A stretch of 64,000 bases of DNA from contig CAWBHS010000004.1 of assembly GCA_963788655.1 (NCBI GenBank), positions 1 through 64,000 on the forward strand, in the 5' to 3' direction. Source of the DNA: an uncultured Verrucomicrobiae bacterium (lineage in GTDB: Bacteria; Verrucomicrobiota; Verrucomicrobiia; Limisphaerales; JAFGQR01). Below, piece after piece: positions 6,558-64,000 of the stretch (the stretch's first letter is position 1; every line of letters starts with the position of its first letter). Below the pieces are notes generated by a model. That model searched no databases and was not told the DNA's origin. It saw only the letters and a list, made by a program, of their open reading frames with translations. Position numbers and translations under genes: made by a program.

Positions 6558-6590
6558 GGATTTCCGATTTCAGGTGGACAGAGCGTTTGC

Positions 6591-8228: not shown

Positions 8229-8259
8229 CGGACACAGGGCACTTTGCTTGAATTGCATG

Positions 8260-8290
8260 AGCGCGGGCTGCAGAGCCCGCGCTTTTTTAT
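8260..8290 (+). terminator. Rho-independent terminator
   Basis: agcgcgggct-gcag-agcccgcgct followed by ttttt, about 30 bp after the stop at 8228. Confidence 0.8.
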
Positions 8291-8341
8291 TTCGGCGCAA
8301 AACGGGAAGGGCAGGGGAGCTGGGCAAACCTACTGCCATCC

Positions 8342-40216: not shown

Positions 40217-40500
40217 CACCCATTTCTAAGATTACTGAAGTTTGAACCGTGGCCGCGGCGGTGAAGCCACGACCACACTTCTTCTGCTGGCGGCAGTTTC
40301 GATCCAAGCGCCGTCTCGCTTCTCTGCCTACGCCAAAAAAACCGCATCTTTTCCTCGCAAAACACGCTTATTTGGGCCATGGTGTCCGCGTACCCAACGG
40401 AATGACTTGGCCCGGTTTCGTCTGCTCAGCAGGAGCTTACGCTTGGCAGAAGAACCGTCAGGTTTCCGATAAATGTGGCTTCAAAACTTGCGTTGTGACG

Positions 40501-43500
40501 ATGAAATTTGGTTGGTGGTCTTCAATTTGTATTTTCGCTCTGGCGTTTTCGGCCTTGGAAGTACGCGCCGAACAGGTGGTGTTTAGTGAAATCATGTATC
40601 ACCCCGCCGGATTGCTGCCGGAATACCTGGAAATCTACAACCACACCGCTACCCCCCTGGACATTGCCCAGTGGCAATTGCGGGGTGGAGTGGATTATGA
40701 GTTTCCCGATTATTCCGCGAGCGATTCGATGCTGACGTTTCTCAAGCCGTATGAGCGAATCCTGGTTTGCGGTGTGGACGCGGCCACGTTGCGCACGGCT
40801 TACGGCATTCCTGCCACCGTCCGCATCTTCGGGCCGTGGACTGGCAACCTCAACAACGCCGGGGAACGCCTGACGCTCAAAGACAAAAACGGCGTGACCG
40901 TTTGCACCGTGACGTTCAACGATCGCGGTAAATGGTCCCCCGCCGCCGATGGGGCCGGGCACAGCCTGGTGCTGGTGAATCCAGACAGGCGGCTCGACGA
41001 CTGGCGCAATTGGACCGCAAGCCAGCGACGCGGCGGTACACCGGGCACCGAAGCCATCGCCGAACCCGAAACGCCGGTGGCCAATCCCGAGGTGAATCTC
41101 AGCCAGGGCATTCCCTTTGTGGAATACGGCGACGTTTGGAAATTCCACGACCAAAACCAGAACCTCGGGACCGCTTGGAGGGCGACTGGTTACGATGATA
41201 GTAGTTGGAGCCAGGGACCGGGTCTGTTCGGTTTCGAAAACGCCGGCTTGCCCGCGCCCGGTATCCAAACGCCGCTGTTCAACGACACCGACGCCAACAA
41301 CCTCATCACGTATTATCTGCGCAAGAGCTTTGCCTATAACGGCAGCCTGCAAAACGTCGCCCTCAGTATCGACCAAATCCTGGACGACGGCGCCATTTAC
41401 TATTTGAACGGCCAGGAACTCGGGCGTGACAACATGCCCAGCGGAACCGTCGATTGGAAGACCACCGCGTCAGGCGCAGTGGGGGACGCCACCGAAAGGC
41501 TCAACGTCATCAGCGTGCCCGGCACTGCGTTGGTCCGCGGCAACAATGTGCTGGCCGTCGAAGTTCACCAGATCAATGCCACCAGCTCGGACGCAGTGTT
41601 TGGCTGCCGATTGAAAATCTCCGCGCCCAGCCAGAACAACGTGGTCATCAATGAAGTTCTGCCCGGCGCGGCAGGCCTCGGATTTGTCGAGTTTTACAAT
41701 CCCACGCTAGCTCCCATCAATCTGCGCGATTATTACGTTAGCGACGATCCCGCGAACTTGGCCAAGCATCGCATCACCACTGATGTCATCGTTTCTGCGG
41801 GAGGATTTGCTTCGGTGGGTTTCGCCGAATCCGGGTTGTCGAGTGGTAGCACGCTCACCGTGTATCTGACCGACGCCGACGGAGTCACGGCCTTGAGCGG
41901 TATCAGCACCAGCGCTGCGTTGAATGGCCGGTCCATTGGCCGCAAACCCGCCGGGGGCGCTTCCTGGTTTTTGTTTGCCGATCCCACGCGCGACGCCCCG
42001 AATGAAACCCAAAGCGGTCTGGCAGCGGCGCTGCACTTGAGCGAAGTGCATTTCAGCACGTCAAATACTGTTGATTGGGTGGAATTTTACAATGCGAGCG
42101 GCAGCAGCCTTCCGTTGAACGGTTTGTTCCTCGCCGCCGACCGTGAGCTGACCAATAAGCTGGCATTGAGCGGGACGGTGTCCGCCGGTGGTTACGCCAG
42201 CGTGAATTGCAATTTCGCGACGTCTGATGGCGAAGTGACGTTGTTTCTGGTCACGTCCGCCAACACCGTGCTGGCCGCGCGGGTGTTCGAGCGGACTGCG
42301 TTGGGCAACTCGTTGCAAGCGTTTCCGGCCGGGGCGAATGAATGGTACGGCGCGCCGGCCAGTTCCCGCGATGCCGCCAATAATCCGCCGCGGCAGGATT
42401 CGATTGTGATTAACGAGATCATGTACGATCCGCCGTCCGACGAAGTGGCGGGCGAGTTCATCGAGCTGTTCAATCGCGGCGCCACAACGGTGGACGTGTC
42501 GAACTGGCGGTTCACCGACGGCATCGACTTCACGATTCCCTCCGGCACGACCATTCCGCCGAATGGCTTTTTGGTGGTCGCCGCCGATCAGGATTGGATG
42601 CGCTCGACCTACGGCACCATTGCGGTGGTGGGAAATTTCAGCGGCCGGTTGCGCAACACCGGCGACTTGATCCGCTTGGTTGATCAATGGGGCAACCTGG
42701 TGGACGAAGTGGATTATCAGCCGGGCGGCACCTGGCCCAATTTAGCCAACGGCGGCGGCACCAGCATGGAATTGCGCAATCCGTGGATGGACAACCATTT
42801 CGCGTCCGCCTGGGCCGACAGCAACGAAACCAACAAAGCCGGTTTCCAGCACTACAGTTACTCCGATGTGTTTCGCCAGCTCAAGGCCGACGGCGGCGTA
42901 ACCGATTACCGGGAACTGCATTTCCATCTGGTGGGCGACAGCCATGTGGTGCTGCAAAACATCCAGGTCCGCCAAAACGGCATCGGCGCGAACCTGATCC
43001 AGAATGGCGACCGCATGTCCACCGACTGTTGCAGCGCCAGCGGTTGGCTGGCCCAGGGCACGCACTACGCCAGCACCATGCAGAACGGCCAATTGCACAT
43101 CCTGGCGGATGGCCACGGCGACAACCGGCCCAATCGCGTCGAGATCGACGTGACCGCCATGCAACCCAGTTCGACGTACGAAATCAGTTTCGATGGCCGC
43201 TGGGTGGCCGGTTCTTCGCGGCTCGTCGCCCAGACCTGGGACCACAGCATCGCAACGAGCTTCTCGCTGGAGATTCCCCCGAACCTCGGTACGCCCGGCA
43301 CGATGAATTCGCAGTTCATCCCCACACCCGCGCCGCAAGTGGATGGCCTGTTGCACAATCCCGCCGTGCCTGCCGCCGGGGAAACGGTCACGGTCACCGC
43401 GCGCATCACCTCCGCCTCGCCGGGTCCGCAAGTGCGATTATTCCATCGGCTCGACAACAGCAGCGGCGACGGCGCCTGGAGCAGCAAGACGATGTTCGAT

Positions 43501-46500
43501 GATGGCCTTTCCGGCGGTGATGCCACCACCGGCGATGGCATCTACACCGCGCAACTCACCGAATACGGCGGCAACGGCCAGGTGGTGCAATTCTACGTGC
43601 AGGCTACCGCCGGCGGGCAGTCCAGTCAGATGCCCAAATGGGGCGCGGACCGGCCGGCGATGTATGTGGTGGACACGCCCGAGCACCATTGGCGATTTGC
43701 GGAAGATGCGCTTCGTGGTTTCGGCGCTCGACGTGCGCACCATCAGCGATCAGGACAATCCCACGGGGACGTACGGCTACAAGTTCCCGCGCCTGTCCAA
43801 TCATTACTTCAACATGACGCTCATCATCAACGAGCGAAACGTGGTCTATAATTGCGAGATTCGCACCAGTGGCAGTCCGTGGACCCGCGGCGGCGGACTG
43901 GATCGCGGCAAATTCAAACTCCCCAAGGACCAGCTCTTTCGCGGCAAGGAAAAGCTCATGTACGACAACGACGCCGGTGGTGGCAGCCGGCATCATAACC
44001 GGATTGCCCGTTACTGGCTTTATCTGCTGGGCCACCCGGTCAATGAGAACGAATTCATCCAGATGGAGGTCAACAACGGCGGCGTCAGTTTGCGCGAGGA
44101 AGTCGAACCGGTGGGCAACGATTTGTTGGACCGCAATTTTGAAAACGGCACCCAGGGCGAATTATACCGCATCGACGACGAGTGGTGGTTTCAAGACAAC
44201 TGGGGCCGCAGTCAGCGCGATGCGGACTGGGTGTATAAAGGCACCGACAATGCCGGCCGTTATCGCACCGAATGGATGAAACGTTCGCGCGAAGACGACG
44301 ACGATTTCACCGCGCTGATCGGCTTTTTCAAAAAGCTGTCGCAAGGTTACACCCAGTCCGAAATCGAGCGACTGATCGATTCCGAGATGGTCATGAAAAT
44401 GGCCGCCGTCCGCGGCTACATTTACGACTGGGACTCGTTCTCAGTGAACCGCGGCAAGAACGGTTACTTCTATCGCAAGCCGACCGATGGGCGGTTCATG
44501 TTCTGGCATTGGGATAGCGACCTGGCGTTTCAGGATGCGAACGCGACCTTCCTGGCGGGCAAGCCCGGCTTTCCCGGCTACGTCCAACAATCCTACAACC
44601 TGCGTCGTTTCAAACATTACCTGGCGCTGGTGGTCGAGGATTACGCGCGCAATTCACCCCGCATGAATGCCTGGCTCCAGGCCGAGGAAAACGCCAGTTC
44701 GCAATACACCGTCAGCGCCACGTACCAAACCTGGTTCAACAACCGCGAAACGCCCGCCCTCAATTTCCTGGGTGCCAACCGGAACGCAGCGTTCAACGTG
44801 ACCACCGGGGGCGGCGGGGTGATTTCCACCAGCGGCGCCACGGTGAACCTGTCGGGCACGGCGCCCTTGCGGGTTTACCAGGTCACGGTCGCCGGCCATC
44901 CGGAAGCGACGTTCTCCTGGATCAACGAAACCAGTTGGACGCTGAATGGCATCGGGCTGTCCAGCGGAGCGAATGTGCTCACCGTCAATGCCGTCGATGA
45001 TTTCGGTCAGGTGCTGCACACCGACACGGTCACCGTCAACAAAAGTGGCAACGCCCCACCGGTAATGGCGCTCGCAGCCAATCCCGATTCCTGGCACGTC
45101 TCGGTGGTAGCACCGTTGGAACTCGATGCGCACAACAGCTTCGATCCCGACGGCGGACCGCTGACGTATTCGTGGACCGTTTCACCGGCAGATGCCCAAC
45201 TCGAAACGAGTTCGCAGGACCGCGCGACAGCAATCTTCCCCCGGCCCGGCCTTTATACGTTCACCGTGAACGGCCGTGATCCCGGCAACGCGGTGACCAC
45301 GATCCAACGTGAGGCGGCCGTGTATGCACCGGACGGTTTCAGCCCGTTCAACGACGCGGTGCTCGAGCCGTATTGGAATCGCAGCAGCGTCGAGCCGCGC
45401 ATGAATTACAACACCGGCACCTATTATTCACTCAGCGAAATGGACGGCCACTTGGTGGTGCAGGTGTTGGACGACCGCGCGCGACCGTTGGGCGCCGCCA
45501 CACCGGCATATCCGCTGATTTGGCGGACCATGCCGCCGCAAACGGATTGGGCGTTGATGACCAAGGTGGGTGTGATCGGGCAGTTGTTCGGCGATTATTC
45601 GACCGGCCTCATGGTTGAAATGATCGAGGAAGGCAGCCCGGTGCGGTACGCGTTCGGTATCGAGAATGGCAGCATCCTGAGCGTCAAACGGGCGACCTCG
45701 TCAGGCGTTGCCGGAGCGTTGAAGAGCGCGTCACTGACCACGACGGAAATCGCGATTCGCATTCGCCGGGCGGGCAACGTGCTGTATTTCGAAAAGCAGG
45801 AAAACGGCGTCTGGTCGCTGGTACATTCCACTGGACTGGCCTCCGGCGAACCGGCGACCAAAGGGGGGCTGTTCGTGGCCACGGACACACCGCAAATCAT
45901 CCGGGCCGCGTTTGATTACGCGCTGCTGGTGGACTCTTCAGCCACTTCCGACCTGCGGGAGAATTTGCGCCTCAGTGAAATCATGTACAATCCCGAGGGC
46001 GGCCTGGAGTTTGAATATGTCGAATTGGTAAACATCGGCGACACCACTTTGGACCTGACGGGCGTTCACTTTACCGACGGCGTCACGTACACGTTTGGCA
46101 GCACCCGGCTCGGGCCGCGGCAATATCTCGTGGTGCCGTATTACGATCAGGCCTTTGCCGCGCGCTACAGCACCGCCGGTGTAAACCTGGCGCCCGGCGG
46201 CTTTGCTCCGAGCCGGTTGAATAACGCCGGCGAAACCATCGAATTGTCCGACGCGCAAGGCGCGGTGATCCTGTCGGTGACGTACGGCTCGTCCGGCGTC
46301 TGGCCCGCTGAGGCCGACGGCGGGGGGAGTTCGCTCGAAGTAGTTGATCCGGCCGGTAACTTAAATGATCCGGCCAATTGGCGCGCCAGCCCGGAATCCA
46401 ACGGTTCACCGGGACGCGCCGGCGGTGAACTGTTGGGAACCGTGGTGGTGAACGAGGTTCTGACCCACACGGATTATCCCTTCGAAGATGCCATCGAATT

Positions 46501-49344
46501 GTTCAACCGCACCGAGGCAGCCATCGACGTCAGCGGTTGGTTCCTGAGCGACTCGCGCGATGATTTGAAACGCTTCCGTATTCCGAACGGCACAGTGATT
46601 GGCGCCGGTGACTTCGCCGTGTTTTACGAAGTCGATTTCAACACCAACAATCCGCTCGTACCGTTCTCGCTCAGTTCGGCCAATGGCGACCAAGTCTATC
46701 TCTCCGCCGCGGACGCCAACGGCAACCTGACCGGCTACCAGTCCCGCGTTGATTTCGGACCGGCGGAGAATGGGGTTTCCTTTGGGCGCTATGAAACGAG
46801 CGTGGGCCGCGATTTTACGGCAATGGCCGAACGGACTTTCGGCATGGACTCCCCCGCGACAGTTGGCCAATTTCGCTCTGGCACCGGGTTGGTCAACAGC
46901 GCGCCGCGCGTGGGTCCGGTGGTGATCAACGAGGTGCTGTTTCATCCGCCCGACATCGGCGGCACCAACGACAACACCTTTGCGGAGTTCATTGAATTGC
47001 ATAACGTCACGACGAACAGCGTGACGCTTTACGATTCGGCGTTCCCAACAAATACCTGGCGTGTGCGCGGGGGTGTGGACTTTGATTTTCCGCAGGGCAC
47101 GACATTGCCGTCGCGCGGATACCTGCTGTTGGTGAGTTTCGATCCGACCACCAACGCCACCGAGTTGGCGGCGTTCCGCAGCAACTACGGATTGCCTACG
47201 AGTGCGACCATCCTGGGTCCCTACGCCGGCAAACTGCAAAACAGCAGCGAGACGTTGAAGCTCCTCAAACCGGACGCCCCGCAAGGGTCCGGGGCCGGAG
47301 GAAGGGCTGGTGCCTTACGTGTTGGTGGATCTGCTGCATTATGGCGACGCGTACCCTTGGCCGGTGAGCCCGGATGGCAACGGTGACTCGCTCCAACGAC
47401 GCCGGCCATTCGACTACGGCAACGATCCGGCCAATTGGAAAGGCGAACCTCCGACCGCCGGGCGGGCCAACGTCGCCGCAAGTGATTTCACTGACACCGA
47501 TGGCGATGGTTTGCCGGACACCTACGAATTGGCCAACAGTTTGAACATAAGCGATCCGACTGACGCTGCGGCGGATGCCGACCACGATGGCCGCTCCAAT
47601 GAGGCCGAATTCCTCGACGGCACGGGACCGCAAAACGCTGCCGATTATCTATCAGGTGCCGGCCATTGAAACCGCGCCGGCGGACCGGATCGCATCGGCG
47701 GGAACGGTGGTGAACTTCACCGTGACGGCCAATGGCACGGAGCCGTTAAGCTATCAATGGCGCGTCAATGGATTGGCGATGCCGGGTGCCACGAATGCTT
47801 CGTTGACCCTGACCAACGTGCAAGCTTCGGAGGCCGGCGACTACCATGTGGTCGTTCACAATGCCGCCGGTTTTGTGATCAGTGAAGTCGCCCGACTAAC
47901 GGTCAATCAACCGCTCGAAATCCTCGCCCAGCCGTTGAGCCAGTACGCCGATTTGGGCAGCATGGTCACCCTCAATGTGCTGGCTCAGGGCACCGGCACG
48001 CTGCGCTATCAGTGGCAACGTGACGGAGTGAATTTGACTGGTGCTACTAACGCCTCGCTTGTCTTGTCGGAGGTGCAAGCCGGGGATAGCGGCAATTACG
48101 CGGTCGTGGTGACGGACGATGTCCAATCGCAGGTTAGTGCCAGCGCCACGTTGACGGTGCTGAGTCCGCCCATCATCTTGCAGCAACCGCAAAGTCAGAC
48201 AGTAGTGGCTTATACCGATGTCTATTTCACGGTGATCGCCGGAGGGCAAGGACCGTTCGCTTACCAATGGCGGCTCAACGGGGTGAACATTGTGGGCGCC
48301 AACAGTGCGATGCTGCAATTGCCCAATGTGCAATCAGGGCAGGCGGGCAGTTACAGCGTGGAGGTGTCCAATCCGGTCAGTTCGGTCGTGAGCAGCAACG
48401 CGCTGCTAACGATTCAAATTCCGGCCACCATTACCGAACAGCCCGTCAGCCAGATGGTGGATCCGGGAGCAACCGTCACGTTCCGCGTGGTGGCAATCAG
48501 CACTTCCACCATGACCTACCAGTGGCGGCTTAACGATCAAGACATCCCCGGCGCTACGGGCAGCACGTTGACGCTGGCGAACGTACAGGAAGCCGACAGC
48601 GGCCAGTACCAAGTGATCGTGACGGACGCGATTGGCTCAGCGGCCAGTGAAGTCGTGCTTTTGACCGTGTTGACCGCGCCGGCGATAACGCAACAGCCAG
48701 TCAGTGTTTCCGTCGTCGAAGGCGGCACCGCGGTGATCAGCGTCGAAACCAGCGGGGCGCTGCCGATGGGCTATCGCTGGCGGTTCGGCCATGTCACCAT
48801 TGAAACGAACCTGGTGTATTCGCACCAATCGTTCCTCACTTTGGAAAATGTAACCACCAATGACGCCGGCCTCTACGAAGTCATCATCACCAACATCACC
48901 ACCGGATTGCCCGGCCTGGCCAAACAGTCGGACCACGCCGAATTGGTTGTCCTGGCCGACAGCGATCACGACGGCATGCCGGATGTTTGGGAGGATGCTA
49001 ACGGGCTAAATTCGCAAGACCCGGCCGATGCGGACCGCGACGACGACGAGGATGAGATGAGCAATTACGAAGAATACTGTGCCGGAACAGATCCCGGCGT
49101 CGGCGCCAGTTACTTGCACGTCGCGACGTTGGAGACCGGAGACAGCGTCACGCTCAATTTCCTGGCGACCTCGAATCGCACCTACACCGTCGAGTACACC
49201 GACGGTCTGGACCACGTTCTATGGCTAAAGCTTGCTGACTTGGTGGCGCATTCGACGAACCAGGTCGAATCCTTGCCTGATCCGCAATGGAATCCCCAGC
49301 GTTACTATCGCCTGGCCACGCCGCGGCAGCCCGATCCGGATTGA
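40501..49344 (+). CDS. Giant secreted protein (~2900 aa): multiple lamin-tail domains, CotH-kinase-like domain, PKD-like and lectin-like domains, about five Ig domains, DxDxDG repeats; indels near 43680, 47300 and 47650
   Basis: Signal peptide MKFGWW..VRA; repeated V(V)INE(I/V)(M/L)Y.P....E(F/Y)IEL.N; DWDS..KNGYFY...WHWDSDLAF (CotH-like); repeated I..QP.SQ....G..V.F.V.A.G.....YQW..NG..I.GA....L.L.NVQ...G.Y.V.V. Confidence 0.85.
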
Positions 49345-49922
49345 GGTTGGGCATTGGGGGAAACGGTTATAGCATTAGTTCGGGCAAATTTGAGGCGCGT
49401 TCAATCCACGCCATACGAACCGCCAAAGCGGTAGTTTAGGAGTTCAGCACCTGCCACTGTGCGAATCGCGTTCAGGCCGGAGCATTTGGATTTCGGGCTT
49501 CGGTTTTTGAGCTCGGTCCCGACACGTTGTTTGCGACATTCGAGCAGCCAGGCAGCACAACCGCAGAAAATATTCAAAAATAGTTCTAGATTTCAGTTGT
49601 CAGTCAGTTCAGGAATCCTTCCAAGCAACTGCTTCCCCATAGAAAGCGGTTTGTGAGGTAAACAGTTCTTTGGAATTTGATCATTTGCGTAGCTTTTGGC
49701 GAGCTACGACCTCGTGGAAAAAAACCGACCAAAACTTCTTTACTGCGGAATTCGCCAAGGCGCGCCCCAATGGGCGCCGCCTTGTGCATTTCCGCAGCGG
49801 GTGCCTTGGTCGGTTCCCGTCCACGAGGTGCGCGGGTGTGCGCCTCTTTGTTTGTTGGATGAGGCTCGCCCGCTTGAACGCCACTGAGGTTAACATGCAG
49901 TCAATGGAGAAAGGATCAGTTG

Positions 49923-51170
49923 ATGAATCCCAAACGGTTGTTCCCCCCAATGCTGATGGCGGCACTGGCCTGCTGGCCACTGCTATCTTCAGCGCGACCC
50001 CGTCCCCCGCTGCCGCCCTGGCCGGAAGTTTTCCTGCAACGGCTGACCTTCGACGAACCTTATGCGCTACCTGCAGGGACAGGCGCTGAACGAAGCCCTA
50101 GCATTGACGCTTCGACTTGGGTGGAAAGCTGGAGCGGTTACGCCCTGAATCGGCAGGATGATCATTTGAACCCGGTCATCATGCCCATGGTCACGACCGA
50201 GCAATGGAACGTGGCCCCGGATGCCGGTATCATTCGCTTTTGGTACAAGAGCGAGTGGACTGCGCCGGGAGTGATGGCCAACGGCGGGCCGGGACATTAC
50301 GCCCGGCTGGCCGAGTTAATCACCACCACGGACAAAAAGCATCCCGTTGTTTTCTGGTCGTTGTATTTCTCGCCGGATGGCACCCAGCTTTACCTCAGTG
50401 GCGACGGGGCATCGGGGCCGGTGGATTACTTGAAGGCATCCATTTCCTGGGACAATAGTTGGCATCTGGTGGCCTTGTCATACGGACCGGAGGAAACCTC
50501 GTTATGGCTCGATGGCGCGTTGGCCGCACTTGGCCAGGGAATTCCGAGTGTGCCGATGGCGGCGGCGGGCCTGACCAGCCTGGTCATCGGGTCGGACGCG
50601 TCGGGGCGGAATACGGCCGCCGGGCAGATCGAAGAGTTTACCACGTTTGTCGGTGAACTGCCGATGTGGCAGACGGGATTCGCCTGGTATTTCCAGGCTA
50701 CATGGGAAACGGCAGCCCAAGGCCCCATCTCCGCGGAAGAAGATGCAGCGTGGCTGCAACAAGCTGCCGAGTTGCAAGCCCTGCGCGACGCGGGATTGGT
50801 GGCGCAAAAGCCAGCCATGCACCCCATGCTGCTGGAATTGGAGACGGGCTTCTATTTTCTGACGCCGGAGCTTTCCGGCACCAATGTGAATCTGACGCTG
50901 GAGAATGGCGAGACCAACAAAGCCTACAATCTGTTGTTCAGCCCGGTCCTGCCCGCGTCCTACTGGAGCACGGCCATCATCGGCACAATGGGGCAGACCA
51001 ATTTCACCGTCCCGCTGTCCAACTACGCCGCCTTTTTTCGGGCCGAGGAAGGGGATGATTGGGACGGCGACGGAATTAAGAACTGGGAGGATGCCGATCC
51101 GTCCGATCCGGACGTGGGCATTTTGCAGGTGACCATCGAGGCGCCGGAGGATGATTCAGTCATTCATTAA
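49923..51170 (+). CDS. Secreted LamG/concanavalin-A-like domain protein, directly upstream of the RHS gene
   Basis: Signal peptide; G.IRFWYK, WHLVALSY..TSLWLDG, LVIGSD, GQIEEF; C-terminal DWDGDG motif; 15 bp from the RHS start. Confidence 0.7.
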   Translation: MNPKRLFPPMLMAALACWPLLSSARPRPPLPPWPEVFLQRLTFDEPYALPAGTGAERSPSIDASTWVESWSGYALNRQDDHLNPVIMPMVTTEQWNVAPDAGIIRFWYKSEWTAPGVMANGGPGHYARLAELITTTDKKHPVVFWSLYFSPDGTQLYLSGDGASGPVDYLKASISWDNSWHLVALSYGPEETSLWLDGALAALGQGIPSVPMAAAGLTSLVIGSDASGRNTAAGQIEEFTTFVGELPMWQTGFAWYFQATWETAAQGPISAEEDAAWLQQAAELQALRDAGLVAQKPAMHPMLLELETGFYFLTPELSGTNVNLTLENGETNKAYNLLFSPVLPASYWSTAIIGTMGQTNFTVPLSNYAAFFRAEEGDDWDGDGIKNWEDADPSDPDVGILQVTIEAPEDDSVIH

Positions 51171-54100: not shown

Positions 54101-57100
54101 CTGAACTATTCCTTGTTTACGGCGGACGACAACTCGTTCTACTTCGGCCATAACGACCAAGAGGACACTTATTTCCAAAGTTCGTACTCCGCCTACGACG
54201 CGAGCCGGTATTTTAATGACACGTGGTCGCTGATACCTTCAATCTTCCAATACGATACTTCCTGGCAGATCGACGCGCTCTTCAGCTTGGGCGCTCGTCG
54301 TTCACCGATTCGGAATGGCGCGCGTACAACAGCGGGTTTTTTGGTCCCTCAGATTGGGTGGACTCAAAATCGAGTTTTGTTGCCGACCCGGTTAATCCTT
54401 TAACCGGCGAGTTCTACATCGACGCCGTGGACCTGTCCTTGCCGGGGCCGATGCCGCTGCAAATCCGGCGCAATTATCTGAGCCAAAATCGTTCGGAAAA
54501 CCAGTTCGGCATCGGCTGGAAATGGAGCTTCACCCCCTACCTGGTCGTGACCACCAACGCGGCGGAAATGCCGATCATCTACGCCGCCGAAATGGCAGGT
54601 TCGGTCGTGGCCTATCGCTTCCACACCAACGAGATGTGGCGGCCGGCGTGGGAAGACAATCCCAGCCTGAACAACAACAACAACGCCGGCATCGGCTCCG
54701 TCGCGAACATGATGAATGCCTGGCTGGCGCGGGCCGAAACCAACGGGGTGGAAACCTACGAGCTCAACACTCCCAATGGGAGTGTGCGCCTTTACGAGAC
54801 GATGTCCTTTCCGATTGTCACCAGTTCCAACACCCTGGCGCGCACCCGTCCTTACCTGGTCCGCTGGGAAGACGCCCGCGGTAATTTCTACACGTTCACC
54901 TACGGCACCAATGCCAGCGGCGGTGGACTATGGGGAACTTATCCGCATCGAGAGCAGCAACGGAGGCTACCTGGGCCTGTATTATGACACCCATGGCCGC
55001 ATCCGCGAAGCATACACCGGCGATGGCCGCCGGCTGAGCTACCGGTATGATAACTATGGCGATCTGGTGCAGGTGACCTTCCCGGACGCGTCGCAAATTG
55101 ATTACGGATACGCCCAGTACACCTTCACGACCAACAGCCAGACCTTCACTGATTCGGACCATCTGCTGGTGCGCGAACTCAAGCCGGACGGGCGGGTCCT
55201 GCAAAACGAATATGACCCGCAGCGGCGCGTCACGAATCAATGGGCCACCGTCGGGCCGGACCTCCGATTGGTGCGCACCGCGTCGTTCCTCTACACCAAC
55301 AATTACGATCCGACCAACCTCACGTTGACCCTCACCGGGACCACGACCCTCCTGGATTACACCAACCGGGCGACGACTTACTGCTACACCAACAGCCTCC
55401 TGCGGCGCGTGCGCGATCCGCTGAATTACGAAGCGCTCCAGGAATGGTACAAAGTGGGCGAAACCAATCCGCCCGCTTCCCGCGCAGCCTGAAGCAAGTC
55501 ACCGACCGGCGGGGATTGGTGACCGAATATCAATACGATGAACGCGGCAACGTGACCAACCAGACCGTGCGCGGCGACTTGCTGGGCGACGGCGATACCA
55601 ACACCGTGGCCACCCAACGGGCGGTGTTCAACGCACAAAACCTGCCGCTGCGCATTGAAACCGCTCGCGGCACGACCAACTGGTTTTACTACACGAACAC
55701 CTGGCTGCTTAGCGGCGTGTCCCAATGGGGCCTCAATGCCACGACGGCCGAGGCCATCACCAATGGGTACAATATTACAACGTCACCAACACGGTGAGCC
55801 TCGGCGGCACGGTGTTTACGAACGTGGCCTTGGGTTTGAAACATCGCGCCATTCGCGCCGAGGGCACCACCGAGGCGGCCACCGACGAATGGTGGCACGA
55901 TGGCCGCGGTTGGCCGACGCAACTCCGCTACCCCGGCACCAGCGATTCGAATGTGGTGACCACCTACTTTTACAGCGACCGGGGCGAGGTCCTGGCCCAA
56001 GCCGATGCCGCCGGGCGGAGGACCGAAATGGGCTACGACAACCTGGGGCGGCCCATCGCGCGCGAAGTGTTCGAGCCCGGAGCCACGGTGCCCCTGGCCT
56101 GGGATTACACCTATTACAACGAGAACGGCGAAGTGACCTGGACCGACGGGCCGCGTTACGATCCGGAGGACTATGTCTGGCGCGATTACGATGGGGCGGG
56201 CCGAAGACGGTCGAAATCCACTGGCGCACGCGGGCCAAAGCCGATGGCAGCGGCGTGGAGGCCGGCGCCGATCCGCTCGCTCCCAACGCTGCCAACGAGC
56301 CAGGGGACGACGGGCTGTATGCCACGACCTATTGCGATTACGATCCCTTTGGCAACCTCGTCCGCGTCACCGATCCACGGGGCAACTATACGCTCAAGAT
56401 TTATGATGGGCTGAACCGCCTGGTGCGGGAGGAAACGTATGCGGCCGACAACACGTTGATGGCGACCAACGGCCTGGCTTACAATGCGGCCGGCGACGTG
56501 ACGGACCCGTGCAACGGGCTGGGCGCCGCCACCCACAAGCTCTACACCAGCCGGGGCCAAGTGAAATGGCAGGCCAACGCCGACGGCTCGACCAACGCCT
56601 GGACTTATTACGCCGATGGCCGGTTGCGCCGGGAAATCCAGCGCAACGGCGCGTATTGGGAACCACCTACGACGATGCTGCCCGGACGGTGACGCGCGTG
56701 TTCTACACCGCCGGCGACTCGCCGCTCGCGACGAATACCGTCGAGTTCGACCGGCGGGGCAACGCGGTCCAGGGCACCGATGCCGGCGGTTACACCTGGA
56801 CGGCCAGCTATGATGGTTTGGACCGGGTGAAAGTGGCGGCGGGACCGCTGGTGACCAACCTGGTGGCCACCGGCATGGACCCCGAGGAATACACCACCAA
56901 CCTCATCCAACAAAGCACCACCTACACCTACAGCGCGAGCGACCAGGTGCTGGCGGTGCAGAACGCTCTGGGTGAAACCACGGTGGCCACCAACGACGCG
57001 TTGGGCCGGGTGATCTGGAGCGGCACCTACGCTTCGAACAGCGCCACACCGTTGCGCGTGACCAGCACCCTCTATCGGCCGACCACCACAGCGCCACCGT

Positions 57101-60100
57101 GACCGCCGGTACGGGCGACAATGCCGTCACCCCACGACGTTCACGGACACCGCGGGCAATCCGTTGTTGACCATCAGTTGCCCCGACACCGGGATCGCCG
57201 AATACGCGCTGAGCCGCTACGACGTGGCCGGCAACCGCGACCTGGCAAGGCCGTTACAGCAACACCAACGGCGCGGTCGACGCTCTGGCAGACCAACGCC
57301 TGGACCTCGACGGACTAAACCGCGTGCTGACCGAAACCACCCGCGACGGCGCGACCACCACCTTCGAGCGGGACGCGCTGGGCGACGTGACCGGCCGGGA
57401 AATGCCCAGCGGGCTGACCTGGTCGGCCACCTACACCAGCGACGGGCGTATCTTGACGGAGCACGATTCGGCGGCACCAACACCACGCGGAGCACGACTT
57501 ACAGCTATTACGGAAGCGGTGCTCCGTGGTCGGGTAAACTCTACACCGTGACCGATGGACGGAGCGTTACGCAGACTAACACCTACGATGACTGGTTGCG
57601 GGTGGCCAGCGTAACCACCAGCGGGAACGAAGACGAAGAAGAAATGACCGTCAGTTGGTCCTACGACGCGCGGGGAATATTAACAAACCTGGTGCAATCC
57701 TTCGCCAACACCAACACCGGACCAAACGACCGCCGTACGGCGGGATTACGACGCCTACGGCGCGGTGACTGGGAATGGTTGGCGCTCGATGGCGCGACGC
57801 CGGGCGCGCGGCATCAAAGCTGGGACAGCGCCGGCCGGCGAAACGGCCTGCGGCCGGCACCTGGAACGTTCCCTTCGCCTACGGCGCCGACGGCCTGATG
57901 ACTCAGGCGGGCGAGGCGACCTTCGGTTACGGCGACAATGGATTGCTGACCACCCGCACCAACAGCCATCGCACGTCATGGTCACGTCTCGCGATGGAAC
58001 CGGTCGGCGCTTGGAAACGACCACGACCGCGACAGCAACGACTTGACCGAGACGTTGACCTGGCGCGGCGACGGCCTGCTGACCGATTACACGGCCACCC
58101 GCAGCGACTTCACCGACACGCGGCACTACGCTTATCAGGATTGGAGCCAACGGTGCTTTAGAAAGCCTGTATCTCGGCAGAGCCAACCGCTGACGAACAA
58201 TTACGATTACGATCAAGGAACGGCCGGCGGTTTGGGCGTGCTGACGGCGGCCAGCCAATCCTCGGCCGAACTACCTGGCCAGTGGGGCTTGCCCAGCAGT
58301 GGCGGAATGGACGGGTTAAGCCGCGTGGTGCAGGCCACCAACACCGTGGTCAAGCGCACCGCCCACGGCCAGGTGAATGGCGCGGCGTCTCTACGGGCCG
58401 ACCTCAATAATCGTCCGCTTGCCATCCGCCACGATTCGACTCAAGCAGGCCAATGGCTGGCCGACATGGAATTGGTCGCCGGCACCAACACGCTGGAAAT
58501 CATCGCCGAGCATCCCGAGCCACCAGTTCAGCACGAACACCAGCAGTTCGTTTACGCTCACCAATGCCGCAGCCGATCTGGCGAATGCACTTATGACGGC
58601 AACGGCAATGTCACCCAGCGCGTCTGGAAAAACCACACCAACGGCACCGTTCGCACGCAGACCCTCACGTGGGATGCGTTCAACCGTTTGGCCGCAGTGA
58701 CCGAGCGCGATGCCGAGGACCAACGGCTACAACTGGCAAGCCGTCTTCGATGGCCTGGGCCGCCGCGTGCAAACGCTCGTGACGCTGGTCAGCAACAACA
58801 CCGAAACGGCTACCGCGACGCTCAACCACTACTACGATCCGAGCGTGGAGTTCCTGGAAATCGGCGTTTCGGTGAACGGCGTGACAACCTGGAAACTCTA
58901 CGGTCCTGATGGCGATGGCGGCTACGGCAGCCAGCAAGGCCTTGGTGGATTGGAAACGTTGAACACGGGCAGTCCCAACCAGAGCACCGGGCGTCATTCA
59001 GGACCACTTCGGCAACGTGCTGGCCGGTATTGCCGGCGGTTCGGTCACTTGGGCTGCCGCTCGCCTCACCAGCTACGGTCCAGTCGAAGGAACCCAATTA
59101 CCGACGCTTTCGTTCACCCCGCTGACCGCCGAGCACCTCGCCTGGCGCGGCAAGTGGCGCGACGTGACCGGCGACTTCTACTGGGGCGCGCGCCCGTACG
59201 ATGCGCGCCATCGGGCCTTTATCGCCTTCGACACGGCGGGTCACGCGGCAACGCCCGACGGTTACTCAGCCTTCGGCGGCAATCCCGTCATGCTCTGGGA
59301 CCCGGATGCGCGCTGTAATAACACCCCATCTGCCAACGTGCCGATGGTGCCGTGGCCAGACAGCGCGTTGGACCTCGAGATCGATGATACACTCAGGAAT
59401 CTGCAAACCATCAACACGGGCTACGCGCTGCGCCGCGAAGCCCAGGAAGCTTATGCGGCCGACCAAGTGAACCGCGCGCTGTGGGATTACCAACTCAATC
59501 AGCAGATTGACCACATGTGGGACCAAACGCCACAACGCGCCTATGCGGGCGCCGCGTGGCAACAGGAGACCGAGCGTTTACGGTACGAATCGACGCCGAC
59601 GCCCGATCTAAGTTGGTCCCAGCAGTGGCGCTACGACCCGACCGGAACGTTCGATAACGCGCTGGCGACCACGGCGAACATTGTGACCCTGGGGACTGCC
59701 AACTCAGCGAGCATCGCTTTCAGCGGGAGTGATTTGTGGGGCAAGGGCGGTTACTCGACAGGCCAGCGGGCGACTGAGGGATTGTTTCTGGTGAGCATGA
59801 TCGCGCCGGCAGGTGGACTGGGGCTCAGGGCGGAAGAAGGATTGCTGGGGGCCGCAGAGGGGTTAGGCAGATATGAGGTTGGGTCATACAACGTGCTGCG
59901 CGAAGGAGCGGAAGCTGGCTTGGACGCTCATCACGTCGGGCAGAAGGCCTTAATGAGGCAATTCGTCGAGGGCTACGACCTCCGAACTGCACCTTCAATC
60001 TTAGTTCCAAAAGCTGGTCATACACGTGGCGCAGATGTTCTGTCGCGGAACATGAGCGGCTTCAACAACGCGCGAGACGTTATCGCAAGAGACATTTGGG

Positions 60101-60192
60101 AGCTTCGGCGAGTTATCTTGGACATCCCGAACAGCCAGCTTCAGCGTTTGATAGAACTGAACAAACAAATGTATCCTGAGGTTAGGAGGTAA
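51186..60192 (+). CDS. RHS/YD-repeat polymorphic toxin (~3000 aa): signal peptide, transglutaminase-like domain, DUF6531-like motif, YD repeats, RHS core, HNH-like tip; many indels
   Basis: MKRYLF..AHA-Q leader; GSPTEQCALLVYLLRQAGYPA and VHIFPW; VADPVNPLTGEF..DLSLPG..LQIRRNY; many YD..G(N/R) repeats; WRGKWRD.TG.FYWGARPYD...NPVMLWDPD core end. Confidence 0.85.
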
Positions 60193-60196
60193 TGGT

Positions 60197-60541
60197 ATGA
60201 CACCCCAGGAATTTGTTTCATGCATTCGGCGCGAGGTTTTGGAAGAGAGTCTTAAGATGTATCGGCAAAGCCTTGAACGCTCAGCTTCGACTCCGACCGG
60301 GCGAGACACATACTGGCCGGAAATGACCGAGTTTTACCAGTCGCTCAACGAAGAACAGCGACCGCAGTTTATGGATGGAATCCGGCAGGTACTGGTGGAC
60401 ACTTTGTCCAATGTCTTCGGAATCCTCGACGGCTCGACTCTGCTGGAAAAGCATCGAGATTACTTCCATCTCACCTATGGCGACGAACCACAAGAACTGA
60501 ATGGTGAACTCCAAGATCTATTCCTGTCGCCTGAAACCTGA
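60197..60541 (+). CDS. Putative cognate immunity protein for the main RHS tip
   Basis: Small acidic ORF starting 4 bp after the toxin stop with an AGGAGG RBS; lower GC like the toxin tip. Confidence 0.75.
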   Translation: MTPQEFVSCIRREVLEESLKMYRQSLERSASTPTGRDTYWPEMTEFYQSLNEEQRPQFMDGIRQVLVDTLSNVFGILDGSTLLEKHRDYFHLTYGDEPQELNGELQDLFLSPET

Positions 60542-60563
60542 AAATGCTGTGAACGAGTAATGG

Positions 60564-60891
60564 AAATGAACTTCACACGCCAACCATAGAAAGGCCCGAG
60601 TTGCCAAAAGAAGTTAAAACGCTGGACCAGCTTCTCAGCTACGCACCCTTCGCAGGCGCAGGAAAGCTCACCTACGTCAGACTGAACATCCCAATGCCCT
60701 GCCCGCCTCGTGGCACTGTCCTGGTCAACACAAGGACGTGGTTTTGCGAGCCTGTTTCATCTCAGCACGCCCGGTTCGCTTTCAGTCAGGGATGCGACCG
60801 TTCCAGCTAGGTTGGCGCTTTGGATAAGCCCATGAAGCGCCGGCTTCAATTCGTTTTGGTCCTGCTGCTGGCGGCGTCCGCCTTTGGTTAC
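60564..60891 (+). repeat. Cassette leader repeat, copy 1 (non-coding block plus signal-peptide coding block)
   Basis: aaatgaacttcacacgccaaccatag identical to 63037-63062; further shared blocks; 60832-60891 similar to 63143-63202. Confidence 0.85.
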
Positions 60892-62729
60892 GCTCCATTG
60901 GCGAAGCTGACTTTGCCGCACCTTCTGGAGGAACGGTCAGCCCGTCCCAGCCATCAGTTCAGCACCAATGCGAGCAGTATCTTTACCCTCACCAATGCGG
61001 CCGCCGACATGGCCCTCACTACCTACGATGGCAACGGCAACGTAACCCAACGCGTCTGGAAGGATCACACCAATGGAACTGTCCGCACGCAGACACTCAC
61101 CTGGGATGCTTTTAACCGTTTGGCCGCAGTGACCGAACGCGACAACGAGAATCATGGCTACAACTGGCGGGTCGTCTTCGATGGCCTGGGCCGCCGGGTG
61201 CAGACGCTCGTGACGCTGGTCAGCAACAACACGCAAACGGCCACCGCCACACTCAACCACTACTACGATCCGAGCGTGGAGTTCCTGGAGATCGGCGTTT
61301 CGGTTAACGGCGTCACGACCTGGAAACTGTACGGCCCCGATGGCGATGGCGGCTACGGCAGCCAGCAAGGTCTTGGTGGATTGGAAACGCTGAACACCGT
61401 CAGTCCGAACCAGAGCACCGGCGTCATTCAGGACCACTTCGGCAACGTGCTGGGGAGCGTTGCCGGCGGCTCGGTGAGCTTGGACTGCCGCTCGGCTCAC
61501 CAGCTACGGTCCCGTCGAAGGAACCCAACTCCCGCGCTTTCGTTCACCCCGCTGACCGCCGAACACCTGGCCTGGCGCGGCAAATGGCGCGACGTGACCG
61601 GCGACTTCTACTGGGGTGCGCGTCCGTACGATGCGCGCCGGCGGGCCTTTATCGCCTTCGACACCGCGGGCCACGCGGCAACGCCCGATGGCTATTCAGC
61701 CTTCGGTGGCAATCCCGTGATGCTCTGGGACCCGGATGGGCGATTGGGCCAGAACCCGGCGTTTGGAGTGGGCACGAGTTATGGGCCGGGCATGGACATC
61801 TTTACCCAGAACGACATCTGGTGGAACAGTTTTCAGCAGCCCGCCACTGCCGCCAACGACGTATTCACACAAAACCAACAATGGATTGACAGCTACCATC
61901 AGCCCAACTGGCTGGCCGGCGGCGGGCGCTTGCTGGGCGGCAATTACGACTGGATGGGAAACCCGGTGCCCGAGAGTAGCAGCGGCTACGGCGGCGCGAG
62001 TGATCCGTACGCCAACTGGAATGCCACGGTGGACTACAACAATCCGCGGGATGTCATGGGCGTCTTCCAGCAAGAAGCGTCGCGCACATCGCGCGGCTCC
62101 GGCTCGGAACTGAGCTGGTCCCAGCAGTGGCGTTATGACTCGACCCGCACGTTTGACAACGCGCTGGCAACCACTGCCAACGTCCTCACCCTGGGCACCG
62201 CTAACTCCGCAAGCATCGCCTTTACCGGCAGCGACCTCTGGGGCAAGAGCGGCTACTCGACGGGCCAAAGGGTCACCGAGGGATTGTTTCTGACCAGCAT
62301 GATCGCGCCGGTCGGCGGGCTAGGACTTAGGGCGGAAGAGGGATTTTTGGGGACTGCCGCAAAGCGGCTAGCAACCGGTGCAGACGGAGCGGTTTTCTGG
62401 TCGGGAATTGGAAGGGGCGGCGCTGAAAGAGCCGCCACATGGGCGGGACAGAACGGAGGAATAACACTCGAATCGACCTTGGCGTACGGGGAATAGCGCT
62501 TCCCGCTTGGGATGCGAGCAATCCGGCCTCTGTTGCGGCTTGGCGACAAGCCTCGACGGATTTCGCTGCCGGCGCGGGAGGAAATGTCCGCGTGCTACAG
62601 GGTGATGCTTTGCGTGTTGATGCTATCTGGCGCGATGAGTTCAGAGCGCTGCAAGCAAATCGCAACGTCAATTCGATACGATCGATAAACCCAAATTCAG
62701 GAGCGGAGGTCTTTCTATGGTCGAGATAA
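60832..62729 (+). CDS. Orphan RHS cassette: signal peptide + duplicated RHS core + ADP-ribosyl-cyclase-like toxin tip (frameshift near 62490)
   Basis: MKRRLQFVLVLLLAASAFGY; 60946-61737 homologous to 58514-59307; NPVMLWDPDGR; tip FWSG...TLEST...W..AS..FA..A.G.V.V...IW..E. Confidence 0.8.
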
Positions 62730-63030
62730 ACAATCTCAGTTCCCGGCAGCTTGTTGAGGCAGTTCGGCTTTGGACCGGATGGGGGCAGAGACGCCCAACC
62801 GAAACAACAAACGAGTGGTGGATCGTTTCGGGGAGCAGGACGCCGTGAAGCTGCTTCCTCTAATAAAATCTTTAGAGGAGGACTTTTACGCATCTGATGC
62901 GCAGCTTGTTGCCGCCAATCTTCAGGAGATGGAAAAACTGGCCTCCGAGCATTTCAAGCGAAAGCATCCGACAGCGGCCGAGGAAATCGTCAAGGCGTTC
63001 GCGTGGTGCTACACGTTCGACTTCAAATAA
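62717..63030 (+). CDS. Putative cognate immunity protein for the orphan toxin (one indel near 62785)
   Basis: GGAGGT RBS then ATG 62717 overlapping the toxin stop; MVEINNL..VRLWTGWG continuing into ORF 62770 (..AFAWCYTFDFK). Confidence 0.7.
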
Positions 63031-63036
63031 ATGAAC

Positions 63037-63202
63037 AAATGAACTTCACACGCCAACCATAGCACCCGAGTTGCCAATGAATTTAAAACGCTGGAAAAGC
63101 TTCGCGGCTACGAACACTCCTCGACGCGGAGTCAATGATCCCGTGAAGCGTCGGCTTCAATGCGTTTTGCTCCTGCTGCTGGCGTTGCCAGCTTTTGGTT
63201 AC
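63037..63202 (+). repeat. Cassette leader repeat, copy 2
   Basis: Matches 60564-60645 and 60823-60891 but lacks the ~180-bp middle segment. Confidence 0.85.
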
Positions 63203-63427
63203 ATTACGTCACCGATCGTTCGGCCAGACAGCGCGTTGGACCTCGAGATCGATGATACACTCAGGAATCTGCAAACCATCAACACGGGCTACGCGCTGCG
63301 CCGCGAAGCCCAGGAAGCTTATGCGGCCGACCAAGTGAACCGCGCGCTTTGGGATTACCAACTCAATCAGCAGATTGACCACATGTGGGACCAAACGCCA
63401 CAACGCGCCTATGCGGGCGCCAAGTGA
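63143..63427 (+). CDS. Mini-cassette: signal peptide + copy of the first post-core module of the main RHS protein (small secreted protein or remnant)
   Basis: GTG-KRRLQCVLLLLLALPAFGY, then 63222-63421 matches 59354-59553 with one mismatch seen, in frame, followed by a stop. Confidence 0.6.
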   Translation: MKRRLQCVLLLLLALPAFGYITSPIVRPDSALDLEIDDTLRNLQTINTGYALRREAQEAYAADQVNRALWDYQLNQQIDHMWDQTPQRAYAGAK

Positions 63428-63710
63428 ATAGGCAACCAATAGCAGGCTTGTGGCCAGCTTTTCGCCTGGTGGCACCGGCAGCAGCTTCTTGGAGTTCGCG
63501 GCCTTGCAACGTTGGCCGGTGCGCCATCTCATGTATTCATCCGAACGTTCCAACACACGGGCCACCCACATCCAGTGCTGGTCCTCGTCAACCTCGGGAA
63601 CGCTTCGCTGATCACCGAAGGTTTCCTGCCAACCGAGTTCAAACGCGACTGCTGCCGGCTCTGTGGAACCATCTTTTGATGCTCCGATAGCCATAATCAA
63701 TCTAACCTAA

Positions 63711-64000
63711 ATGAAAATTAAAGCGATGAAGCTAACCGGATTCCTTCTGGCGCTGTGGGCCGGGCTGTTGACGCTTCCAGCACAACTGGTCGTCACGGTG
63801 TTACCACCCAAAATCACTGGCAGCAAAGCGGTGTACCGCTGGCGCTGAAGAACAACTTTGCGGAAAGCGTAACATCGGCCCGGGCCGGTTGTTCCTATTG
63901 GATGAGCATGGCAAGATGGTCGGCCAATCAACGCACTGGATCATTGGGAACGGGAAGTCCAAAGGGCTAGCGGCAGGCGGTACGAACGCCTTTTACTTTG
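63711..64000 (+). CDS. Hypothetical secreted protein, runs off the window end, indels
   Basis: MKIKAMKLTGFLLALWAGLLTLPA-Q signal; across frames LVVTVLPPKITGSKAV/PLALKNNFAESVTSARA/FLLDEHGKMVGQSTHWIIG. Confidence 0.55.

Follow-up and report, generated by a model that had tools for sequence, protein, structure and literature searches.

The window analysed here is 64,000 nt long, positions 1 to 64,000 of contig C4 (C4:1-64000), and comes from a metagenome-assembled genome (8.96 Mb in 115 contigs, 86% complete, 5.6% contamination) of an uncultured Verrucomicrobiae bacterium. Near its end a long RHS toxin gene is followed by two cassettes that an initial annotation described as orphan toxin modules, each opening with the same leader and its own signal peptide. 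The leader belongs to a discrete, conserved, non-coding element of ~245 nt, here named E, that has no match to any curated RNA family, has a conserved secondary structure on the strand that carries the RHS genes, and is strongly enriched beside polymorphic-toxin modules, at their boundaries, in this and in other genomes. The best overall explanation, which we consider probable, is that E is a structured element of toxin-module junctions with a role at the RNA level and that the cassettes behind it are chimeras. In what follows, C4, C35, C48, C70, C89, C93 and C109 are contigs of this genome, L-numbers are loci in other genomes found by DNA search, P-numbers are homologous proteins, and G-numbers are other genomes; the E-linked units at C4:60564, 63037 and 66772 are called C4a, C4b and C4c, and that at C93:8349 is C93a.

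Conservation and fold of the element

The leader was first recognized by a 26-mer, AAATGAACTTCACACGCCAACCATAG, that is identical at 60564-60589 and 63037-63062 on the + strand (0 expected, from 100 shuffles), followed by shared blocks that are equally real (60607-60649 and 63076-63118, 81% identity). Genome-wide the exact 26-mer occurs at five places, C4:60564, 63037 and 66772, C48:36327-36352 (-) and C93:7987, and with one mismatch at C93:13523. It forms the 5' end of E, and conservation runs for ~245 nt to ...CCAGCTATG, so the leader is a discrete element and not a chance likeness. Searches with BLASTN and an nhmmer profile recover 11 copies or pieces on six contigs (13 nhmmer rows; Table 1). 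They are mutually 80-94% identical, and the five copies with the identical 26-mer differ by 6-20% in the remainder. All but the copy on C35, ten of 11, have RHS_repeat hits within 2.5 kb. Relative to the first copy in the window, the second has a deletion of ~180 nt in the alignment. Both follow an immunity-like gene, as originally described, but the next copy, at C4:66772, stands behind a duplicated RHS-core fragment; the 26-mer is thus not confined to immunity/cassette junctions, and E occurs also between housekeeping genes.

The spread of E was assessed with a 271-nt core as query (expect value ≤1e-5) in two samples of 401 genomes, one from the same order and one phylum-wide. BLAST finds the element in 88 of the 401 genomes of the order, in 52 of 166 genera and at 70-85% identity, and in 61 of the 250 order genomes that are ≥90% complete and ≤5% contaminated. 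The 15 carriers in the phylum-wide sample are this genome, one other of the same order, 11 from other orders of the class and two labelled as the same phylum, giving 13 further carriers outside the order. By profile, copies in other genomes are mostly full length, and even distant copies can be recognised as E; in other orders, a complete genome holds one or two of them, as far as scored. Among five congeners of the carrier genome G214, a 1.5-kb query matched over E alone, in four of the five genomes, which shows E to be kept far better than the sequence around it; these congeners yielded no empty site, the flanks being too diverged.

No known RNA family accounts for this conservation. Rfam 15 gave no match at an expect value ≤1 over 59500-64000 of the window and none at ≤0.1 for E in eight loci of other orders, where the sole hit was a tRNA elsewhere, and ARAGORN found no tRNA or tmRNA. 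The literature searched holds no description of the element, an absence that is no proof that none exists. A small protein gene is ruled out by the lack of 3-periodicity in column entropy (ungapped blocks) and by core lengths in all classes modulo 3 (9, 12 and 13 sequences); gaps of 1 and 2 nt are numerous. Separately, a stop-free frame on the + strand spans the whole of E in 24 of the 34 copies in alignment A1, with none on the - strand, and upstream open reading frames (ORFs) run into E in C4c, L064 and L068.

Covariation in the 34 copies of A1 supports a conserved secondary structure. RNAalifold yields 25 pairs, 14 of them with compensatory changes, and a structure of six helices was fixed in the alignment columns (Table 1). 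By this structure 93.7% of 874 cells are paired, compared with 36-50% for slid partners, and double changes affect 15 of 26 pairs, compared with 4-9 when slid; the observed values were reached by 0 of 500 shuffles. Because the structure was derived from the same 34 sequences, it was tested on 24 further near-full-length copies aligned by a sequence hidden Markov model (HMM) alone. In this out-of-sample set 541 of 596 cells (90.8%) are paired, as against 33-51% for slid partners, and several pair types occur at one position, as at 193/225 (CG 16, TA 6, GC 1). The covariance check on leader copies that the initial annotation proposed has thus returned conserved structure with compensatory changes. 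G-U pairs such as 238/247, where 30 of the 34 copies have U-G, point to a fold on the + strand, that of the RHS genes. The most conserved part of E is its first ~45 nt (GAAC..ACGCCAACCA..GCA-loop-TGCCAA), which is mostly unpaired.

A sigma-70 scan of 60100-63600 found no promoter site inside E. The single promoter-like site of this range (60148-60177) precedes immunity-like ORF 1, and its four terminator-like hairpins fall within signal-peptide codons at chance frequency; across copies, neither a conserved promoter in front of E nor a terminator where it ends is present. A GTCAAY motif occurs at a fixed distance, ~32 nt after E, in 24 of 57 copies and for that reason marks a subclass rather than the core of the element; in copies linked to signal peptides the position reads CTTCAAT, inside the signal-peptide codons. 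Some candidate features were rejected. A closing stem or terminal inverted repeat, CATAGC/GCTATG, varies in its 5' half and is constant in its 3' half, which leaves no covariation. A sigma-54-like or ECF-like (extracytoplasmic function) reading of the 5' motif, judged by eye, finds the GG of the -24 box in a minority of copies. CsrA-type control was considered because most copies have CA(U/G)GGAUG in the last hairpin loop and two CsrA genes are present in the genome; it was set aside because ~1/5 of copies by eye read GGC in that loop.

Several observations concern insertions in E and a relative of it. Homologous inserts of ~90-100 nt sit at the same site in two copies (C93:8150-8239 and C109:59955-60047); the insert has inverted ends (CACCCCATGAGAT ... 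ATCTCACGGGGTA) and resembles a small hairpin or an insert of the miniature inverted-repeat transposable element type. Contig C109 holds a second tandem RHS array (41843-50855), with two RHS regions ~6.2 kb apart that give paired RHS_repeat hits of identical score and a 5' piece of E (47423-47575) between them. Downstream of the copy on C89, the ORFs at ~4300-7400 resemble, by their sequence features, an insertion of IS66 type. The diverged relative, E2, falls below the nhmmer threshold for E in this genome and in the window directly precedes a frameshifted gene for a small secreted protein (from 63711). Its 96% copy at C70:41378-41089 stands in front of an intact gene of this kind, and pieces occur at L051:2368-2697, at L069:1905-2025 and in L033. 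E2 is found before the small secreted protein gene twice in this genome and also in G340, and in G207 it cuts off a signal-peptide remnant. The protein itself (137-142 aa, secreted, without Pfam family) recurs directly after E or E2 or at the ends of RHS loci in several genomes and falls into three Atlas clusters of hypothetical proteins (567, 78 and 102 members) that are most frequent in Verrucomicrobiota.

The cassettes and their host locus

Behind E the two cassettes share, as annotated, a block of signal-peptide codons (60824-60891 and 63135-63202, 84% identity). Their ORFs open with signal-peptide-like starts, ATG 60832 (MKRRLQFVLVLLLAASAFGY...) and GTG 63143 (VKRRLQCVLLLLLALPAFGY...), which ORF-phase arithmetic places in frame with RHS-derived sequence in both cases. 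The points of entry into the main gene also differ as claimed, 58515-59312 for cassette 1 and 59354-59553 for cassette 2. By inspection the peptide has the canonical Sec layout of MKRR, a hydrophobic core of 12-14 residues and A-x-G/A-x-A; MKRR / LQFVLVLLLAA / SAFG-Y fits a Sec (signal peptidase I) peptide and contains no lipobox cysteine. In paralogues and homologues, too, A-x-G stands ahead of the junction (AFGH, AWGH, AWGN).

Two genes on C93 point to the source of this peptide. The ORFs at C93:8349 (700 aa, E in front) and C93:11163 (683 aa, without E) are intact signal peptide-RHS-toxin genes, each with ~470 aa of RHS repeats ending in ...DPFGL and then differing toxins; over 457 aa the two share 91% identity. 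On C48 a truncated paralogue of 222 aa stands behind E, and in this genome one subfamily of E is found 22 nt upstream of where the genes of this short RHS toxin family start. The sole protein match between C4a and C93a is 34% identity over 53 aa. The signal peptide therefore stands, on its layout and on these intact genes, as the apparent native N-terminus of a family of short Sec-type RHS toxins unrelated to the long main gene.

C4a shares with the C93 genes only E, the signal peptide and ~11 diverged codons (PPERRLFLHF vs APLAKLTLPHL), after which it continues in main-type core, and in C4b the shared DNA ends within a few bases past the signal peptide. The window cassettes are thus chimeras in which E and the first 20-31 codons of a short RHS gene are joined to pieces of the local long RHS gene. 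That the breakpoints of C4a and C4b differ is what illegitimate joining would be expected to give. The design recurs in other proteins: P0002 (899 aa) and P0004 (639 aa) have a common signal peptide, MRRFGSTI(L/F)LVVLLPW..., and join RHS sequence ~300 residues apart, and P0007 joins it further downstream than either; a metagenome scan for the DNA around these three genes found only relatives of 48-60% (L049-L052). A remnant, MKRWLSFLFLL, follows E at the same distance in L033.

The modules of this locus are all decaying. The main gene, whose C-terminal toxin region begins at ~59320, is read in at least nine successive frames. It differs from a 96.6% duplicate at C4:64253-66775 by ten indels of 1-2 nt and one of 3 nt in 2.5 kb, and from cassette 1 by five single-base indels; the assembly is not indel-noisy, because ORFs of up to 6119 aa are intact elsewhere in the genome. 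The 2.5-kb duplicate corresponds to main-gene 55182-57698, retains an open frame of 680 codons where the main copy is broken, and ends exactly at the third copy of E. Immunity-like ORF 1 has no Pfam family, and an immunity role is suggested by its position.

In cassette 1 a 3' piece of RHS core (60946-61742) is 88% identical to main-gene 58515-59312 and leads through a DPDGRL motif (61729-61746) into the toxin region; its homologues cover the core and pre-toxin half only. An out-of-frame stretch garbles ~19 residues of the conserved segment ...SYGPVEGTQLP..., which the main gene, P0002 and P0004 read as ...(S/T)(S/A)YGP(V/L)EGTQLP.... A further frameshift, at ~62477-62490, separates ...TLESTLA from RGIALPAWDAS... 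in the toxin, where P0019, P0020 and P0022 (up to 86% identity) are unbroken, with ...TLE(S/A/T)T(L/R/M)A(S/A)RG(I/L)(T/K)LP(A/T)W.... The toxin domain family (window 62300-62729) is widespread, with 30 homologous clusters, two of which carry PF02267 (ADP-ribosyl cyclase), and its carriers are RHS proteins, haemagglutinin-type proteins (PF05860/PF04830) or signal peptide-toxin proteins of ~200 aa; the window pieces themselves gave no Pfam hit. Immunity-like ORF 2, whose ATG overlaps the toxin stop by 13 nt, is split, and its 62770-63030 piece has no Pfam family. Cassette 2 has, after its signal-peptide codons, a 99.5% copy (63222-63421) of a 200-nt pre-toxin piece of the main gene, 59354-59553, and stops where the main-gene homology ends and the E-related element begins.

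The locus thus has the appearance of a graveyard of RHS modules and not of a battery of toxins that are exported independently. The suggestion that the cassettes are independently expressed and exported is accordingly unlikely to hold for working toxins, because cassette 1 is frameshifted and garbled with a split immunity ORF and cassette 2 is a stub of 94 codons. Elsewhere in the window, giant ORFs with Lamin-tail, CotH and PKD domains at 40249-43851 and 43343-47386 overlap by ~500 nt in different frames and may be one frameshifted gene.

Table 1. Positions of E, of related features and of the RHS locus; bare coordinates refer to the window
Feature	Position	Strand	Basis or remark
E copy 1, full	C4:60564-60809	+	nhmmer HMM positions 2-243, expect value 1.6e-70; alignments A1, A3
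E copy 2, 5' ~99 nt only	63037-63135	+	nhmmer HMM positions 3-99, expect value 6.7e-17
E, full, beyond window	C4:66772-67014	+	nhmmer/BLASTN
E, full	C48:36352-36115	-	nhmmer/BLASTN
E, interrupted by ~90-nt insertion	C93:7987-8149 + 8240-8328		nhmmer/BLASTN
E, 5' part	C93:13524-13644		nhmmer/BLASTN
E, full	C93:13641-13881		nhmmer/BLASTN
E, full	C89:6330-6090	-	nhmmer/BLASTN
E, 5' part	C109:47423-47575		nhmmer/BLASTN
E, split	C109:59799-59954 + 60048-60113		nhmmer/BLASTN
E, partial	C35:19754-19889		nhmmer/BLASTN
E helices	A1 columns 89-91/125-127, 100-103/113-116, 151-153/169-171, 190-196/222-228, 204-206/217-219, 232-239/246-253
E2, diverged relative of E	63423-63712	+	weak alignment with E; 5' motif GGCAACCAATAGCAGG, similar to that of E
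Main long RHS gene, pseudogene	54223..60192	+	DUF6531 and RHS_repeat (Pfam, on pieces)
Immunity-like ORF 1, 114 aa	60197..60541	+	starts 5 nt past main toxin stop
Cassette 1 ORF, 554 aa	60832..62496	+	signal-peptide codons 60832-60891
Out-of-frame stretch in cassette 1, 57 nt	61478..61535	+	extra base 61478, missing base 61535
Second-frame continuation of cassette 1 toxin domain	62439..62729	+	homology
Immunity-like ORF 2, split	62717-62848 / 62770-63030	+	ORF list; split read from ORFs alone
Cassette 2 stub, 94 codons from GTG	63143..63427	+	signal-peptide codons 63143-63202
Small secreted protein, frameshifted	63711-64137
Small secreted protein, other sites	C4:67060-67470; C70:41090-40665; L056, L069, L049, L050

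Neighbourhoods of E and its possible roles

Same-strand ORFs and Pfam domains were examined around E at 37 loci of other genomes to ±1.5 kb and at 20 loci to ±2.5 kb, and opposite-strand ORFs were checked around 66 loci. A Pfam toxin, immunity or RHS domain lies on the strand of E in 14 of the 57 loci. Upstream of E these include LHH with SUKH (L032), AHH (L034), Tox-REase-7 (L048), Tox-REase-5 with Imm52 (L066), NucA/B with SUKH (L067), Imm70 with SUKH (L065) and Tox-ART-HYD1 (L069). RHS sequence lies downstream in L033, L039, L041 and L063, with signal peptide-RHS ORFs following E in L063 and L041, and upstream in L057; many other loci hold pairs of unnamed ORFs of 300 aa and 150 aa. In some loci E stands on both sides of a unit: RHS fragments with DMP19 in L067, a Tae4-like protein with signal peptide together with a 243-aa ORF in L053, SUKH in L056, a small secreted protein in L069 and, as non-toxin cargo, a 177-aa ORF with a glucuronyl esterase in L062. 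The metagenome contig L051 repeats the order of the window, with an RHS-toxin gene, a 163-aa ORF, E 11 nt on and the next RHS gene. E usually starts 0-120 nt past the stop of a co-oriented ORF, which at toxin loci is typically the immunity gene, and there the next gene or an RHS fragment comes after it. In C4a, C48, C93a, C4c, L056 and L063 it sits 20-60 nt ahead of a secreted-protein start.

The likeliest role of E is one in RNA, where as a co-transcribed leader or intercistronic element it would serve the downstream gene; in RHS loci that gene would usually encode a secreted protein. This role is ranked first because the covariation lies on the gene strand and because E stands so close before secreted-protein starts; a recombination or mobile element is ranked second, and a stand-alone small RNA (sRNA) or generic repeat third. 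The array itself may have been stitched together by recombination, with incoming or duplicated toxin-immunity modules bringing the downstream E and leader along. If homology, either within E or in the RHS core, fixed such modules on one side and the other side was joined illegitimately, E would come to stand at every junction with a new entry point each time. The repeated copies of E may in addition offer passive homology for rearrangements.

Several findings weigh against an RNA leader and against this account of the array. The helices were partly picked by eye from the same alignment of 34 copies that was later scored, the fold of a single sequence is no stabler than that of shuffles (z = +0.96 on the + strand, -0.40 on the - strand), and RNAalifold on a larger MAFFT alignment gives a weak consensus of -1.69 kcal/mol. 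E also follows RibD, PurF, aspartokinase, transketolase, PurC, PpdK and P-type ATPase genes, as well as SCO1 and melibiase, and it lies between rpoC and rpsL-rpsG-fusA. In at least 12 loci the downstream gene runs convergently, on the strand opposite to E, and the upstream gene is divergent in L038, L063, L070 (the gcvP start is 47 nt away) and C35; because of such neighbours, a fixed role as 5' leader or 3' trailer fits only part of the copies. The recombination route of array building is one that we infer, and the 99.5% identity of cassette 2 with today's main gene is better explained by a recent local duplication than by displacement of an older resident module.

A DNA-level role for E is possible, though we hold it to be clearly less probable than the role in RNA. 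E would then be a recombination site or the end of a mobile cassette (integron-, rAID- or IMEX-like, or a non-autonomous element), and a recombinase acting in trans would read the 5' motif and the folded strand and build arrays. The 5' boundary of E is indeed sharp and abuts unrelated sequence directly, whether immunity stops, the end of the RHS-core duplicate at C4:66775, ORFs that read into E (L064, L068) or, at position 0, the PurC stop, and the 26-mer has stayed identical in five copies that otherwise differ. E-flanked cassettes occur in five loci of other genomes, non-toxin cargo included, and conserved intergenic motifs have a precedent in the orphan arrays of Bacteroidales rAID, as described in the consulted part of that report (PMC12247911). 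The distribution is patchy, with high identity across families, and a FastTree topology of 58 copies (245 columns, read for topology only) does not group them by family and puts those of this genome in three places. Truncated copies mostly keep the 5' part, but their breakpoints vary from HMM position 47 to 182, unlike a fixed crossover point. Against this role, the 20 Phage_integrase hits in this genome include none on C4, C48, C89, C93 or C109 (resolvase and HUH families were not searched); reading by eye the flank pairs that belong to 53 distinct full-length copies showed neither terminal inverted repeats nor target duplications; and the G214 congeners yielded no empty site. Recombinase-type genes lie near E in seven of 66 loci of other genomes and none recurs: integrase fragments (L007, L079), an IS110 transposase (L060), a DDE transposase (L059), a reverse transcriptase (L013), an IS200-like Y1 transposase (L031) and an excisionase-type HTH_17 (L034). 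More specific, and in our judgement unlikely, is the proposal that E is the boundary or recombination element of an undescribed Verrucomicrobiae cassette-capture system, in which toxin-immunity genes and further genes for secreted proteins would move as E-bounded units, and a trans-encoded enzyme that reads the 5' motif and the folded strand would insert them behind resident genes. Such a system would build arrays in the manner of integrons, though with no integrase linked to it, and in some lineages it would give captured fragments a leader and a signal peptide.

That E is a stand-alone sRNA gene, or a generic transcribed repeat of the ERIC/REP type that toxin loci merely tolerate or accumulate, appears improbable. 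Its presence between housekeeping genes and where both neighbours diverge or converge agrees with this idea, as do the low copy number, one or two, that complete genomes from other orders show as far as scored and the conserved unpaired 5' block (ACGCCAACCA), which could be a seed or a protein site; yet toxin, immunity or RHS genes, a very small share of a genome, are the neighbours of ten of 11 copies here and of E at 14 of 57 loci elsewhere, BLAST detects the element in no more than 88 of the 401 sampled order genomes, and an sRNA gene is at odds with the lack of a conserved promoter and terminator. Least probable is an assembly artefact, with collapsed or chimeric RHS repeats joined. The genome is a metagenome assembly and the locus a mosaic of duplicates, but the copies of E differ among themselves and lie on six contigs, the same anatomy of immunity gene, E and RHS fragment is present in independent genomes and on a metagenome contig, and single-base indels are atypical of repeat collapse in a genome whose long ORFs are intact elsewhere. 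Of these readings, the leader or intercistronic RNA at toxin-module junctions is the one we prefer.

Relation to known repeats and toxin arrays

Polymorphic-toxin loci are known to grow by accumulation of orphan modules, and their junctions have so far been treated as anonymous. Here a defined, folded element of ~245 nt marks such junctions across many families of an under-studied soil phylum. As a regulator of expression E would be a new leader RNA tied to secreted toxins, and as a director of recombination it would be a new way of building toxin arsenals; either way it provides a sequence handle, as an HMM or covariance model, for toxin-immunity islands in Verrucomicrobia.

Integron attC sites are imperfect palindromes of 57-141 nt that are poorly conserved in sequence and depend on an IntI beside attI. 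Like them, E is a repeated element with a conserved fold at the cassette boundaries of a co-oriented array, with structure kept, but it is ~245 nt long with six separate helices, strong sequence conservation, no linked integrase and variable truncation points. ERIC, REP/BIME and Correia repeats are short (35-155 nt) palindromic units without preference for a gene family. They and E are multi-copy, non-coding and intergenic, mostly co-oriented with flanking genes, without a transposase of their own, and conserved across genera in variable copy number; E differs from them in being longer, in having no palindrome and few copies per genome, and in its enrichment at polymorphic-toxin loci.

The rAID arrays of Bacteroidales, according to the consulted part of their description (PMC12247911), share with the present loci co-oriented short genes of toxin-immunity systems, conserved intergenic motifs and a wide, patchy spread in the order, and they are defined by an adjacent tyrosine recombinase and contain orphan immunity genes only. 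The corresponding inter-module motif here is E, which separates modules both in the window and at L053, L056, L062, L067 and L069. In contrast to rAID, a Phage_integrase search found no such recombinase on the E-bearing RHS contigs, the flanks in other genomes being viewed to 1.5-2.5 kb, the modules carry toxin parts, and E also occurs singly between housekeeping genes.

Closest in anatomy are the orphan rhs-CT/rhsI modules of Salmonella and E. coli, which in the portions of the reports considered (PMC3967940, PMC7043789) are co-oriented behind a full-length rhs gene, consist of a core piece up to a DPxGL-type motif, a toxin and an immunity gene, have variable entry points, and are thought to arise by recombination. 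Both window cassettes lie downstream of and co-oriented with the main RHS gene (+); the succession of core, toxin and immunity gene is found in cassette 1, and cassette 2 has only the 200-nt pre-toxin piece. The initial annotation took classical orphans to be, as a rule, silent donors that lack translation and export signals, a premise now dated, as internal promoters and translation starts are described in Salmonella orphan rhs, whose toxins are not always silent, in the part of that study consulted (PMC7043789). The examined part of Zhang et al. (2012) describes arrays of toxin cassettes with adjacent immunity genes and mentions no conserved spacer. The window toxins appear to be Sec-exported and without a link to type VI secretion (T6SS), with no T6SS or PAAR domain in the pieces scanned (no genome-wide search was made). 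As far as the cited portions go, the enterobacterial modules have no spacer and are expressed from promoters inside the rhs reading frame, whereas here a structured element of ~245 nt precedes every module, and each cassette has a start codon of its own (ATG 60832, GTG 63143) and a signal peptide that appears to come from another gene family.

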